From the NCBI GenBank assembly GCA_025544715.1, contig GCA_025544715.1_4109.4: a DNA stretch of 34,224 nucleotides, one strand, 5' to 3'. Of this stretch, positions 5,396 through 14,704 are shown in pieces. Below the pieces are notes generated by a model. It did no database searches and was not told the origin of the DNA. It saw only the letters and a program-made list of their open reading frames with translations. Every line of letters begins with the position of its first letter. Position 1 is the stretch's first letter. Origin of the DNA: Escherichia coli. GTDB taxonomy: Bacteria > Pseudomonadota > Gammaproteobacteria > Enterobacterales > Enterobacteriaceae. A program made the position numbers and the translations under genes.

Positions 5396-6598
5396 ATGTT
5401 ACCTTTTGGAAGAATGATTAAGTACGCAAATATTGCACCAGGTCCAGAACCTGTAGAGTTCTCAGATGTTTTACAACAACATTATACAAACTGTATGTAT
5501 CTACATAACCCAACTAATACTTTATATGGTTATGGTAGTAATAACATGTATCAATTTGGTCTTGGGAATTCAGCAGCAGTTTCGTCATTTACAGTACTTG
5601 CAAGGAACTGTGCAGCCTTTTGGCTTGGTGTTCAAGGTTCATTGATGATTGATTTGGATAATAAAATATACTACACTGGGTCGGTTGGTGCATTTTCTGA
5701 TTATGGAGATGCAACACCTGTTAATGGTTATTTGACAACATGGACTGATGTTACTGTTGCATTTAATAAAATAGGTGTTATGGCTAATATGATCAAGAGT
5801 GTATATATAGGTGAAAGTACTAGAATATTATTAACCGATGGTAGAGTAATTGCGTGTGGAAGAAATACCAATGGTGAATGTGGCTCTGGTAATAAAAATT
5901 CCATCCCTACACTCACAGTTATGACTAATATGGGTGAAGTTACACATATGGCATGTTCATTACAAGGAACGCACTATATCAAATCAAATAAAGATGCATG
6001 GTTTTGTGGTAAGGATAACTTTGGTGAAAGTGGATGTGGTGGTAGTTCTGTTGTATATTTGAACAAATTCGTGATTAGTAATGTAGAACATATTAGTACT
6101 ACATACGATGTTACATGGTGGTTTACTACTGGTGGGCCTGTATATTATAGCGGGGCTAACAGTACTGGACAAGCGGGTAATGGTACGACTACATCGGTAA
6201 ATCAGCTAACACCAATTAGGAACACATCGGTCACGGTTGATGTAAGTAAGTACAGTACTTTTATTTGTCCAAGTAATATGGGAAATGCATCAATTGGTGC
6301 ACCTATGGCACAATACGCACCATATGTTAGAAGTAGTGGTGCTAACTCATATGGTCAAGAAGGTAATGGAACTAATACATTAGTTAGAACTTGGAATATT
6401 TTTAATCTTAGTGCAATAAGTGGTGGTTATGAAAATGTTCTTATGGCATCTAAAGATTGGAGCAGAACCATAATAATTACTAAAGATTATAAATTATATG
6501 CATGTGGTGGCTGGAATGGAAATGGTGGTAGATTGCCAGATGGCACTTATAGTATTACTACACTAACATTAATGCCAACGCAGTTATGGCAACAATAG
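5396..6598 (+). CDS. leader-tagged RCC1-like beta-propeller protein, 400 aa
   Basis: ATG after AAGGAGG; N-term MLPFGRMIKYAN; repeated GxNxxG(Q/E)xGxG motifs (NGECGSGN, GQAGNGT, GQEGNGT); S/T/N/G/Y-rich. Confidence 0.8.
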   Translation: MLPFGRMIKYANIAPGPEPVEFSDVLQQHYTNCMYLHNPTNTLYGYGSNNMYQFGLGNSAAVSSFTVLARNCAAFWLGVQGSLMIDLDNKIYYTGSVGAFSDYGDATPVNGYLTTWTDVTVAFNKIGVMANMIKSVYIGESTRILLTDGRVIACGRNTNGECGSGNKNSIPTLTVMTNMGEVTHMACSLQGTHYIKSNKDAWFCGKDNFGESGCGGSSVVYLNKFVISNVEHISTTYDVTWWFTTGGPVYYSGANSTGQAGNGTTTSVNQLTPIRNTSVTVDVSKYSTFICPSNMGNASIGAPMAQYAPYVRSSGANSYGQEGNGTNTLVRTWNIFNLSAISGGYENVLMASKDWSRTIIITKDYKLYACGGWNGNGGRLPDGTYSITTLTLMPTQLWQQ

Positions 6599-6606
6599 GA
6601 GGGAAT

Positions 6607-7716
6607 ATGTTACCTTTTGGAAGAATAATTAGGTATGGAAATATTGTCCCTGGTCCTAAAAAAATAATTAAAGTTGGTGCTTCTACCCAAGGCCAATTCT
6701 TATTGACTGATTCACATGATTTATATTACATAGGTAGAAATCAAGGTGGTGAATCTGGAAATGGTAATACCAACACGGTGTCTTCGTGGACATTAGTAAG
6801 TGCAGATGTTTCTAATTTTTTCGTGGGTGATCGTACACTTGTTATTATTAAAAATGATAATACGATATGGACATCAGGTCAAACGTACTGGTTCTCATCT
6901 TCTACAACTACTTCTTACAGTACTGTATTAGTTGAAAGAACTAATTGGTTTACCAATGCTATACCAGTAAGTGAAATTGCTAATATTGTATGTACAAATG
7001 GTTTAATATTTGTACTTAGCACTAATTCAGTACTCTATGGTGCAGGAGATAATGGATATCGTGGTTCTTTGGGTATTGGTTCATCATCAATTTACACATT
7101 AACTCAATGTGCTACGAACGTTCGTAAAGTAATGACCAATGCGAATGATAGTATGTATCTTACATTAGATAATAAGCTATATAGTTCTGGATGGAATAGT
7201 AGTGGGCAGCATGGTACGGGGAACCAAACACAAATTAACACTTGGGGATTGCGTAGTTCTGGTGTAATCGATGCAGCCATTGGTGGTAATGCATTAAATT
7301 ACTATAATGGTACATCATATTTCGTATGTGGTCAAACTCCAAACTTTCTTAGTTCAGGTACGACTACATTCCGTGCAGTTCCTTTAAGTACTTTGCCTAA
7401 TAGTTCTCCGTTGTTTATGACGAATTCACCTGCCTTAAATACTGCTACACAAATGGTAATTACCAGTACATATCAGAAGGGTGTTGGGGCGAACCGTGGT
7501 TTGGGATTAAACAATTCTCAAACTGGTGCTATATATAGTGCTACCAATTTACAATTACCCGTTGAAGTTAGTGAGATTAGGGATGTTCTTTTTAGTGATG
7601 GTTTGACATCGATATTAACCAAAAATGGAGATGTGTATAGTACTGGATCGTATTACGCCATTCCAGGTGCAATCGAGGATGTTGCAGTCTTTACTAAAAT
7701 TGATTTACCAAAATAA
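6607..7716 (+). CDS. leader-tagged RCC1-like beta-propeller protein, 369 aa
   Basis: Track ORF starts upstream; family start MLPFGRIIRYGN is ATG 6607 with SD AGGAGGG overlapping upstream stop; motifs GGESGNGN, GQHGTGN. Confidence 0.8.
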   Translation: MLPFGRIIRYGNIVPGPKKIIKVGASTQGQFLLTDSHDLYYIGRNQGGESGNGNTNTVSSWTLVSADVSNFFVGDRTLVIIKNDNTIWTSGQTYWFSSSTTTSYSTVLVERTNWFTNAIPVSEIANIVCTNGLIFVLSTNSVLYGAGDNGYRGSLGIGSSSIYTLTQCATNVRKVMTNANDSMYLTLDNKLYSSGWNSSGQHGTGNQTQINTWGLRSSGVIDAAIGGNALNYYNGTSYFVCGQTPNFLSSGTTTFRAVPLSTLPNSSPLFMTNSPALNTATQMVITSTYQKGVGANRGLGLNNSQTGAIYSATNLQLPVEVSEIRDVLFSDGLTSILTKNGDVYSTGSYYAIPGAIEDVAVFTKIDLPK

Positions 7717-7722
7717 CATAAT

Positions 7723-7747
7723 GCCAGTACAGAGTACTGGCTTTCTT
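7723..7747 (+). terminator. intrinsic terminator (GCCAGTAC-aga-GTACTGGC plus T-tract)
   Basis: Perfect 8-bp stem, 3-nt loop, followed by TTTCTTATTT; just after the stop at 7714-7716. Confidence 0.65.
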
Positions 7748-13480: not shown

Positions 13481-13486
13481 AATAAA

Positions 13487-13513
13487 GCCAGTATTTTGTA
13501 CTGGCATTTTTTT
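13487..13513 (+). terminator. intrinsic terminator (GCCAGTA-ttttg-TACTGGC plus T-tract)
   Basis: 7-bp stem then ATTTTTTTG. Confidence 0.55.
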
Positions 13514-13551
13514 GTCCTAAATATAATAACGATTTACATTTGGAGGATACA
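13514..13551 (+). promoter_or_regulatory. diverged 5' cassette (AAATATAATAAC, SD GGAGGA)
   Basis: Recognisable but less conserved version of the family cassette. Confidence 0.35.
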
Positions 13552-14704
13552 ATGCTACCCTTTGGAAGAATTATCACATCATCAAAAAAGAACATACAAC
13601 CTTCTGTTACAAAAATAGCTTCATCTGATACGACAGTTTTTGCCCTTATGTCAGATGGTACGTTGTACAGTAGAGGCTCTCAAGAGTTTGGGCAAATGGG
13701 TATAGGTAATATTATAACACAAACCAAATGGGTTTTGTGCAATACAAACGTAGAAGAACTATGGGTTCGGGTATGAGTCAACATTAATTAAAAAGAAAGA
13801 TAATACGATGTGGTATGCTGGAAATGGTGCATCATTCGGTTTATCAACTGATAAGTCAACAACGTGGGCTTCTGCAAAGATAGTGTTTGATAGAATAACA
13901 GCCCTAGGCAAAACAATAAAACAAATTGTAGTTAGTGCAGGAGCACTGAGCGTATTATGCACAGACAACACTATATGGAATACGGGCTATGGTAGTTATG
14001 GTCAACTAGGAAATGGTAGAAGTACTGATTCGCTTACATCATTTGTACAAGGAACAGTACCTACTGGAGTAACACCATCCAAAATACTGGCAAATTTTCT
14101 TATGCAAGGTTTTATTGGAACCGATGGAAGATTGTATTATACTGGTGCAATATCAGGCGTAGGTACAACCGACATGACGTTATATTCAAAGTACACGTTA
14201 TGTTCTCAAATAACTAATACCTATACAGTAAAAGATTATACAACAAACTCAAGTTACTTTGCTTTTGCTATAGCAAATAATAATAGTACTAATAAATTAT
14301 TTGCATATCATGGTGGTGGTCAATACTTTGGTCAGTTAGCAAATGGTTCTACATCACAAACATATATTTCGTTAAGACAAACAACACAAGCACCTGGCGA
14401 TATAATAAGAAGCAGTGTAGGTTATTCATATTTTTCTAATCATATTATAACTTCATTGGGTGTTTACGCAACTGGTAATAACACAGGCGATAACGCAGGT
14501 CAATTGGGTATAGGTACACAAACAGATGTGTCGGCCTATACCAAATGTGTACTACCAATAGAGATGAATATGAATAACGTATATGTTACAGCAACTTTAT
14601 ACAGAACTTACTTAACCGATGGTATACAAATTTACAGTACTGGACAAAATATTACAGACGGTGGGGTTGCCAGTACTGTATTTGTCAAAGATTCACCATT
14701 TTAG
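13552..14704 (+). pseudogene. leader-family RCC1-like paralog split by a frameshift at a GGG run (about 13763-13765)
   Basis: Frame 1 ORF (MLPFGRIITSSKK...) stops at 13774-13776; propeller-like sequence continues in frame 2 from 13754 to 14704; skipping one base gives ...NVEELWFGYESTLIKKKDNTMWYAGN. Confidence 0.55.

Follow-up and report, generated by a model that had tools for sequence, protein, structure and literature searches.

Short N-terminal elements that target or dock otherwise different proteins are a known principle, with the bacteriophage T4 capsid-targeting sequence (CTS), the anchors of receptor-binding proteins (RBPs) and the adenovirus fibre tail as examples. The T4 CTS is an N-terminal consensus carried by the internal proteins IPI, IPII and IPIII and by Alt, and the internal-protein locus is hypervariable among T-even phages. 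Arrays of several RBPs with conserved N-terminal anchors are found in TSP1-4 of CBA120 and gp63.1/gp66 of G7C, and the adenovirus fibre tail motif FNPVYPY docks into the penton base. In the fibre protein gp24 of cyanophage Pam3, an N-terminal alpha-helical baseplate-docking domain precedes TNF-like and glycine-rich receptor-recognition domains, an arrangement that resembles the S16 gp38 adhesin (PMC9608196). Here we analyze a 34,224-nucleotide stretch of DNA (the window; Escherichia coli assembly GCA_025544715.1, contig GCA_025544715.1_4109.4) in which eight tandem genes between positions 5,396 and 14,704 begin with nearly the same 12-residue peptide, hereafter the leader, followed by either an RCC1-like or a glycine-rich body. 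The leader is conserved as a peptide and marks proteins enriched in virions, and it is likely to be a tag for incorporation into the virion.

The window locus belongs to an Asteriusvirus, an E. coli jumbo myovirus like PBECO4, 121Q and phAPEC6. A megablast search with positions 5000-15000 matched only Asteriusvirus jumbo myoviruses of E. coli and Salmonella (PBECO4, 121Q, phAPEC6, SP27, G17 and others; 310-386 kb), with identities up to 98.9% and at most 47% of the segment covered by any one record. This combination of high identity and limited single-record coverage indicates that the array is a known, annotated locus whose gene content varies among close relatives. Database records annotate its genes as "regulator of chromosome condensation" or "DNA condensation protein". 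An earlier reading of the sequence (the original prediction) had presented the array as a candidate for an undescribed system, which is only partly so, as RCC1 arrays and their presence in virions have been published (PMC7247149, PMC5259590), while the shared leader on unrelated folds is apparently undescribed. The shared N-terminus is not mentioned in the phAPEC6, CBB, JP4, Hua 2017 or Iyer 2021 papers, and a literature search with the motif string returned nothing relevant.

All eight MLPFxR starts lie on the plus strand where the original prediction had placed them (Table 1). The degenerate DNA pattern ATGYTNCCNTTYNNNAGR matched the window exactly eight times, always at an array start, and gave no match in 100 dinucleotide-preserving shuffles (8/8 starts against 0 expected by chance), and a six-frame scan of the window revealed no further MLPFxR copies. 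Behind the leader are six intact RCC1 propellers (369-401 aa), which match Pfam RCC1, RCC1_2 and WD40_RLD as well as phrog_4219, one glycine-rich body and one frameshifted RCC1 pseudogene. Pfam and phrog assignments therefore agree with the proposed division into seven RCC1-like bodies and one glycine-rich body, with one of the seven being the pseudogene. The claim that the bodies diverge completely had to be dropped, since the RCC1 bodies are alignable paralogs with ~22% identity and only the glycine-rich body is unrelated.

The six intact RCC1 paralogs are 73% identical in the leader, compared to 22% in the body, and the leader forms the best-conserved 12-column stretch of their alignment. 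The leader of gene 4, which encodes the glycine-rich protein, has 9-10 of its 12 residues in common with the other array leaders, and this protein can be aligned with the RCC1 proteins over residues 1-31 only. Synonymous codons are used throughout 43 distinct leader DNAs from four genera: CCT, CCA, CCG or CCC for P3, TTT or TTC for F4, AGA or AGG for R6, TAC (25) or TAT (15) for Y10, and GGG, GGA or GGT for G11. The leader is also kept in genes 2 and 6, which have no repeated upstream cassette, and in genes of Pectobacterium phage CBB that stand at four separate loci with unrelated upstream DNA. In AlphaFold2 (AF2) models, residues 1-15 of the gene 2 propeller are unpacked, with a predicted local distance difference test (pLDDT) below 50 compared to 83.4 for the whole model (predicted template modelling score, pTM, 0.85), and residues 1-19 of the gene 4 protein are coil, with residues 1-7 below 50 (whole model pLDDT 92.7, pTM 0.88). 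The identity contrast, the synonymous codons and the unpacked leader in the models place the leader outside either fold and make it more than a duplicated DNA junction.

The consensus was derived from 103 unique leader open reading frames (ORFs) of at least 150 aa in ~14 related jumbo genomes. M1, P3 and F4 are invariant (103/103), position 2 is L or I, and position 5 is free. R6 is present in 69% and I6 in 22%, followed by Y10 (86%), G11 (82%) and N12 (84%), and position 9 is occupied by K (41), N (17), Q (13) or E (10), and also by R and D. The resulting tag, M-[L/I]-P-F-x-R-[M/I/L]-h-x-Y-G-N, usually continues into a Pro-rich linker (I-x-P-x-P). The bodies behind it include RCC1, Kelch, Laminin_G_3 (ConA-like lectin), Gly_rich_2 and unidentified folds. 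The tag exists and is under peptide-level selection, as the original prediction had argued from synonymous variation, and it is detached from the fold and present on several unrelated folds.

By BLAST with leader DNA, each of 37 Asteriusvirus-type records proved to contain 5-16 copies, and weak matches were obtained in CBB and two Erwinia phages. The syntenic locus of CBB, which adjoins the same array of small membrane-protein genes as in the window, contains seven tandem leader genes encoding Kelch-like, Laminin_G_3 and ~220-aa proteins (phrog_6011, "virion structural protein"), all seven with the N-terminus MLPF[S/P/A][R/I]..Y[G/A]N. In Erwinia phage Hallingskeid, five RCC1 proteins and a protein of ~220 aa start with MIPFxRMIKYGN. 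The leader is also present on GAP32_001 (RCC1), on GAP32_002 and on a truncated ORF at the start of the GAP32 record; this ORF matches the CBB_549 family in sequence. When 1.84 billion representative proteins were searched exhaustively with HMMER and the window leader profile, 21 matches were obtained at E <=0.001, of which 20 align from residue 1 or residues 6-7; the exception (P0152) aligns at residue 45, behind a run-on upstream extension. A 40-aa N-terminal profile recovered only two fragments from a 5.8-billion-protein database, because its word index is ill-suited to so short a motif. Two DNA-pattern scans of IMG/VR gave true matches only on 11 contigs of 348-378 kb, the other pattern matches being a few chance ORFs of 26-37 aa. 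In these searches the leader was found in no other phage type, and the tag is restricted to one jumbo-phage group.

A second leader class, MLPF[P/S]II[S/N].T or MLPFPIIS[N/H]T, lacks YGN and is carried by RCC1 and glycine-rich cargo in IMG/VR jumbo contigs (L010, L014, L015, L026, L028 and L030), where it stands beside class 1 in the same arrays. The two classes may represent two docking specificities. Two leader RCC1 proteins are of double length (667-676 aa; L025 1903-3933 and L028 6413-8416) and are perhaps tandem propellers or fusions of two cassettes. The glycine-rich homolog in PVP-SE1 (gp19) and most other homologs of the glycine-rich body have no MLPF, indicating that the leader was added in the jumbo-phage lineage. 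Many glycine-rich homologs from non-jumbo phages (P0021-P0050 and others) start with M-[L/I/F]-E-[L/M/T]-[L/M]. On a ~150-kb phage contig (L038; 8134-8799 and 10001-10744), a neighbouring 221-aa protein with a weak Laminin_G_3 match starts with MNEMMIVS. Other phage lineages may thus have short N-terminal tags of their own on the same kinds of cargo, as the M-x-E-[L/M]-[L/M] starts of glycine-rich and lectin-like proteins in ~150 kb phages suggest.

Carriers of the leader are strongly enriched in virion proteomes. The CBB virion table of 55 proteins (PMC5259590) lists nine of the 11 leader proteins (CBB_144, 247, 536, 537, 548, 549, 551, 552 and 553) compared to 46 of 543 other ORFs (Fisher p = 2.4e-8), and all six structural proteins that its authors called CBB-specific are leader proteins (CBB_144, 247, 536, 537, 551 and 552). 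Two of these are isolated insertions among non-structural genes, CBB_144 between nrdD and nrdG and CBB_247 adjoining endonuclease VII and a recombination endonuclease. Electrospray ionization tandem mass spectrometry (ESI-MS/MS) of phAPEC6 virions detected gp003, 005, 006, 007, 009, 010, 549 and 551 (PMC7247149, Table 1), of which gp003, 005, 006, 007, 009 and 010 map to ORFs beginning exactly at MLPF. GAP32 gp1 is reported in the literature as a structural protein verified by mass spectrometry (MS), and the virion table of JP4, obtained by liquid chromatography with tandem MS (LC-MS/MS), includes the leader proteins JP4_577, 581 and 582, the first being the gene 7 ortholog. Leader proteins are thus far above background in the published virion MS of phAPEC6, CBB, GAP32 and JP4, which bears out the suggestion that the leader is a virion tag. 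As far as the searchable literature shows, what is new is a 12-residue tag shared by more than 100 proteins, whose bodies belong to at least four Pfam-defined folds, and its presence predicts association with the virion even when the genes are scattered.

Existing gene models partly obscure this family. Several annotated starts in PBECO4 (NC_027364) lie upstream (MNKEGN.., MPVLCTGFLICIKYSI..) or downstream of MLPF. The phAPEC6 record (MK817115) lacks annotations for two leader ORFs (2434-3543 and 6063-7253), and of the glycine-rich ORF at 7325-8059 it includes just a fragment (gp004). These three phAPEC6 leader proteins were therefore invisible to the published MS search.

RCC1 or RCC1_2 scored above the Pfam gathering cut-off in the six intact RCC1 genes (1-3 and 5-7) and in the two fragments of gene 8, and the bodies consist of ~50-aa blades that have the GxxGQLG signature and match the Pfam repeat models (PF00415, PF13540, PF25390). 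The propeller fold expected for the bodies was recovered in the AF2 model of gene 2, a seven-bladed RCC1-like propeller that Foldseek aligned with UVR8 (E 1.7e-19, TM-score 0.77). Its best Protein Data Bank (PDB) matches were UVR8, HERC and RPGR, none of them a phage structure, and a PDB sequence search with the RCC1 protein gave eukaryotic RCC1-like domains only. For the glycine-rich protein, PDB sequence searches with the single sequence and with a profile yielded nothing useful, and its tail-fibre relatives were found by fold comparison only. Its model has a beta-sandwich from residue 20 followed by the glycine-rich domain, suggesting an architecture like that of Pam3 gp24 and of gp38-type tail-fibre adhesins (phages S16 and T2). 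The lectin-type cargoes are remotely similar to modules that occur in baseplate-wedge proteins and in giant virion proteins.

The array proteins have isoelectric points (pI) of 5.4-9.0, near neutral, and net charges of -4 to +7, so a role in condensing DNA fits them poorly. The annotation goes back to the chromatin binding or Ran-GEF activity of RCC1, and bacteria are not known to have Ran. The label "DNA condensation protein" is a name transferred from eukaryotic RCC1, and the DNA-condensation role is unsupported. We also rejected the proposal of the phAPEC6 authors that RCC1 proteins build a DNA-organising inner body, which was based on the protein name; the proteins are near-neutral and were detected with low peptide counts.

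We favor a reading in which the leader, likely a virion-incorporation tag, docks interchangeable adhesin-like modules on the exterior of the virion, the external placement being held with little more than even confidence. An external adhesin is favored by the predicted tail-fibre-tip fold of gene 4, by the lectin and propeller cargoes and by the lack of a protease site with a conserved Glu, and the related phage RaK2 provides a precedent with the conserved N-terminal anchors of its RBP array. The peptide would act as a portable N-terminal address tag that docks its carrier at a common outer site on the capsid, tail sheath, baseplate or whisker fibres. Candidate docking sites are the fibre-anchoring protein at hexamer centres, the tail-sheath rings and the whiskers described for phAPEC6 and CBB. 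The cargoes (RCC1 and Kelch propellers, ConA-like lectins and the beta-sandwich/glycine-rich adhesin tip) would serve as ligand-binding modules, which would make the array a set of exchangeable accessory adhesins. Its turnover proceeds cassette by cassette, through recombination at the repeated terminator-promoter-Shine-Dalgarno-leader junctions. In a bolder and distinctly tentative version, MLPFxRhhxYGN would be a self-sufficient plug that loads any fused protein onto a defined socket of Rak2-like jumbo virions and so displays a shuffled, strain-specific repertoire of a dozen adhesins. CBB, phAPEC6 and 121Q have unexplained whiskers or hairs on capsid and tail, and these might provide that socket.

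Several points weigh against tag-directed external display. We infer that the tag itself causes incorporation, that the carriers are external and that they bind host-surface ligands. Adhesin-type fold evidence is limited to one cargo class. CBB_550 and CBB_554 have the leader and are not in the virion table. Per-protein MS coverage in phAPEC6 was low (3-17%), and the list obtained from CsCl-purified phage includes thymidylate synthase, a RecA-like protein and topoisomerase (PMC7247149). With such non-structural proteins in the MS lists, sticky lectin-like late proteins could also co-purify with virions or debris.

The hypervariable locus and the ~10-12-aa consensus with which unrelated proteins begin, in a phage group with a T4-like prohead protease, core scaffold and capsid inner body, are equally reminiscent of the T4 internal-protein locus. 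The main rival explanation is a T4-like CTS that would bind the core of the prohead scaffold, so that the cargoes would be packed into the head, perhaps into its inner body, and would form an arsenal of effector or anti-defence proteins for ejection into the host. The virion association of the carriers fits this explanation, and RCC1-like propellers can be tight protein inhibitors, as in BLIP-II. We nevertheless consider it unlikely: neither the leader nor the sequence behind it has a conserved Glu or L/I-x-E site (Glu is absent from the first 40 residues of genes 2 and 3), the cargoes have lectin, propeller and tail-fibre-tip folds with near-neutral pI unlike basic DNA-associated internal proteins, and the peptide counts in phAPEC6 are low compared to the hundreds of copies needed to fill an inner body. 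Less probable still is that abundant, sticky binding proteins made late simply co-purify, with the leader having another protein-level purpose, for example in export, in timed degradation or as a recognition site for a chaperone or modifying enzyme. Clear non-structural proteins in the virion MS lists, lectin-like cargoes that could bind lipopolysaccharide or debris, and the two undetected CBB proteins are consistent with this idea. However, detection recurred in four phages purified independently in three laboratories, the enrichment in CBB (9/11 against 46/543) is very strong, the leader has no signal-peptide-like hydrophobic core, and no dedicated chaperone or enzyme gene accompanies the scattered CBB copies.

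Conservation might act on the nucleic acid only, with the leader codons belonging to a duplicated junction under gene conversion or having a role in translation initiation or as a recombination handle. Within the window the first 21 nt are indeed nearly identical, the ~60-nt upstream cassette is repeated five times, and swapped leaders on orthologs that are 92-93% identical show that recombination occurs there. This explanation is largely refuted and, in our judgment, very improbable, as every conserved residue varies synonymously across genera, the leader is kept downstream of unrelated DNA (genes 2 and 6; CBB_144, 247, 536 and 537; Hallingskeid), and M1, P3 and F4 are invariant in 103/103 ORFs with position 5 free. 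A duplicated DNA junction with no synonymous variation was also the outcome that the original prediction had named as fatal to it, and the codons do vary at conserved residues. It is scarcely credible that the leader is the first structural element of the fold, such as a propeller-closing strand. An N-terminal strand does complete the last blade in many propellers, but residues 1-15 are unpacked with pLDDT <50 in the AF2 model, and the same peptide stands on glycine-rich, Kelch and ConA-like proteins.

Gene content of the array changes rapidly. Genes 1, 2, 6 and 7 are 99-100% identical to their PBECO4 copies and gene 3 is 92% identical, while gene 4 is absent from PBECO4 and 94% identical in phAPEC6 and 121Q. 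The best identity of gene 5 in PBECO4, phAPEC6 and 121Q is 23-33%, compared to ~100% identity of its flanking genes to PBECO4, and judging from these comparisons it looks like a recently exchanged cassette. Three gene 2 orthologs (P0004, P0005 and P0007) with 89-93% identical bodies have the leader MLPFVR[M/L]FDYGN, the gene 6 variant (MLPFVRMFDYGN), instead of MLPFGRIIRYGN, placing recombination breakpoints right at the leader. Together with the pattern of gain and loss, the repeated cassettes and the pseudogene, these swapped leaders show that the array undergoes birth-and-death turnover and that its cassettes are shuffled, the breakpoints lying at the conserved 5' ends. Such turnover between phages that are ~99% identical elsewhere is typical of host-range or host-interaction genes.

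The features of the array are collected in Table 1. A terminator hairpin of one family, GCCAGTAC..GTACTGGC with a T-run, follows five array genes. A box TAAATAT[A/G][A/G]TATAA, a strong Shine-Dalgarno sequence and ATG lie 3' of four of these hairpins and also upstream of gene 1, whereas a looser version, CTAAATATAATAACG, stands between the fifth hairpin (after gene 7) and gene 8. The sequence (T)ATAAATA occurs upstream of the phAPEC6 structural genes for the major capsid protein, scaffold, protease, gp238 and gp245, and ATAAATA has been reported as the late motif of CBB (PMC5259590). Because the cassette box nearly matches this motif, the array appears from its sequence to be expressed from late-type promoters. 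A cassette promoter of the -35/-10 type was rejected, as a sigma-70 promoter scan of the array gave no excess over shuffled sequence and the box is of the late TAAATA type.

Table 1. Coordinates of genes and junction features in the leader array, numbered from the first letter of the window.
Feature	Position	Strand	Remark
Late-promoter-like motif TAAATATGATATAA and Shine-Dalgarno sequence AAGGAGGG	5364..5395	+	Upstream of gene 1
Gene 1: leader MLPFGRMIKYAN (5396-5431) and RCC1 propeller, 400 aa	5396..6598	+	99% identical to PBECO4 copy
Gene 2: leader MLPFGRIIRYGN and RCC1 propeller, 369 aa	6607..7716	+	Directly after gene 1, without terminator/promoter cassette
Junction cassette: hairpin GCCAGTAC..GTACTGGC then T-run (7723-7741), then TAAATATAGTATAA (7756-7769)	7723..7769	+	
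Gene 3: leader MLPFARMMNYGN and RCC1 propeller, 395 aa	7788..8975	+	
Junction cassette: terminator 8983-9001, promoter-like motif 9017-9030	8983..9030	+	
Gene 4: leader MLPFGRMVKYGN, beta-sandwich, then glycine-rich domain (predicted tail-fibre-tip fold), 245 aa	9048..9785	+	phrog_4474
Junction cassette: terminator 9791-9817, promoter-like motif 9826-9839	9791..9839	+	
Gene 5: leader MLPFGRMMNYGN and RCC1 propeller, 385 aa	9857..11014	+	
Gene 6: leader MLPFVRMFDYGN and RCC1 propeller, 391 aa	11024..12199	+	Directly after gene 5, without cassette
Junction cassette: terminator 12211-12229, promoter-like motif 12243-12256	12211..12256	+	
Gene 7: leader MLPFPRMIKYAN and RCC1 propeller, 401 aa	12275..13480	+	Ortholog JP4_577 in JP4 virion LC-MS/MS table
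Terminator hairpin 3' of gene 7	13487..13505	+	
Gene 8: RCC1 pseudogene with class-2-like leader MLPFGRIITSSK	13552..14704	+	Interrupted by 1-nt frameshift

Gene 8 is interrupted by a 1-nt frameshift near 13757-13766, which leaves an ORF of 74 aa (13552-13776) followed by an ORF of 298 aa in the +1 frame (13808-14704). The same break is present in PBECO4 and a different lesion in phAPEC6 (a 52-aa ORF and a deletion), indicating that gene 8 is decaying. Its leader MLPFGRIITSSK resembles the class MLPFPIISNT of related phages and is not read as a decayed copy.

Directly left of the array, the minus strand contains four tandem small ORFs of 64-81 aa with similar N-terminal halves (4445-5294). They are preceded by a perfect sigma-70 consensus, TTGACA-17-TATAAT (promoter 5346-5318), and are probably early genes. 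A run of small hydrophobic ORFs, also on the minus strand, occupies positions 15389-18169 and includes six tandem ORFs of 104-122 aa (16126-18169); in the annotation of CBB and GAP32 their counterparts are labelled putative membrane proteins. These hydrophobic ORFs flank the leader array in Asteriusvirus, Mimasvirus and an Erwinia phage, and the neighbourhood is thus conserved.

If the leader is indeed a docking tag, it would account for the way in which binding domains newly acquired by jumbo phages enter the particle, as exemplified by CBB_144 and CBB_247, which are found in virions although their genes lie among those for nucleotide metabolism and recombination. It would also point to what the unexplained "hairy" appendages consist of and do, and therapeutic jumbo phages could be engineered to display cargo or adhesins by means of a very short tag. 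For annotation, it would replace the misleading "DNA condensation" or "regulator of chromosome condensation" label in dozens of GenBank records and correct gene starts in PBECO4 and the missing or fragmentary gene models of phAPEC6.

Compared to the T4 CTS, the leader is similarly a consensus of ~10 aa at the extreme N-terminus of unrelated virion proteins encoded in a clustered locus with fast turnover, and Asteriusvirus-type phages are distant T4 relatives with a gp21-type prohead protease. It differs in having no conserved L/I-x-E protease site at its end and in its cargoes of 17-73 kDa with adhesin- or lectin-type folds, whereas those of T4 are small basic proteins or enzymes, and the modeled folds disfavor an internal location here. 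In gene 4, the leader and linker stand where Pam3 gp24 has its docking domain. No profile-sequence match of the glycine-rich protein to gp38 or Pam3 gp24 was found, and the leader is an unstructured 12-aa peptide with a Pro-rich linker that also serves propellers and lectins, whereas gp38 and Pam3 gp24 have a folded alpha-helical domain. The adenovirus fibre likewise uses a short, conserved, aromatic and Pro-rich N-terminal peptide to anchor a variable receptor-binding protein to a capsid site, but it belongs to a eukaryotic virus, forms a single trimeric fibre family and is unrelated to the leader in sequence. Eukaryotic RCC1 has the same seven-bladed propeller, from which the array proteins differ in their near-neutral pI and in being mixed with lectin and adhesin cargoes behind one tag.

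RaK2, from the same phage group, has nine tailspike or fibre genes (NC_019526, 322764-345682) whose N-termini form two classes of four genes each, MxNxLIQPKGSVSKETN.. and MSLSNLSSSN...G.F..G. The MLPF leader was absent from the 28 kb of RaK2 that were checked, and synteny of this tailspike cluster with the leader array was rejected, as the cluster adjoins nrdD/nrdG and not the membrane-protein array. The leader array nevertheless has the organization of RaK2/K64-1 and CBA120-type arrays, namely tandem genes for virion components with a conserved N-terminus and divergent C-terminal domains. Those arrays attach trimeric beta-helix depolymerases through longer, folded anchor domains, whereas the leader cargoes are small globular binding modules.

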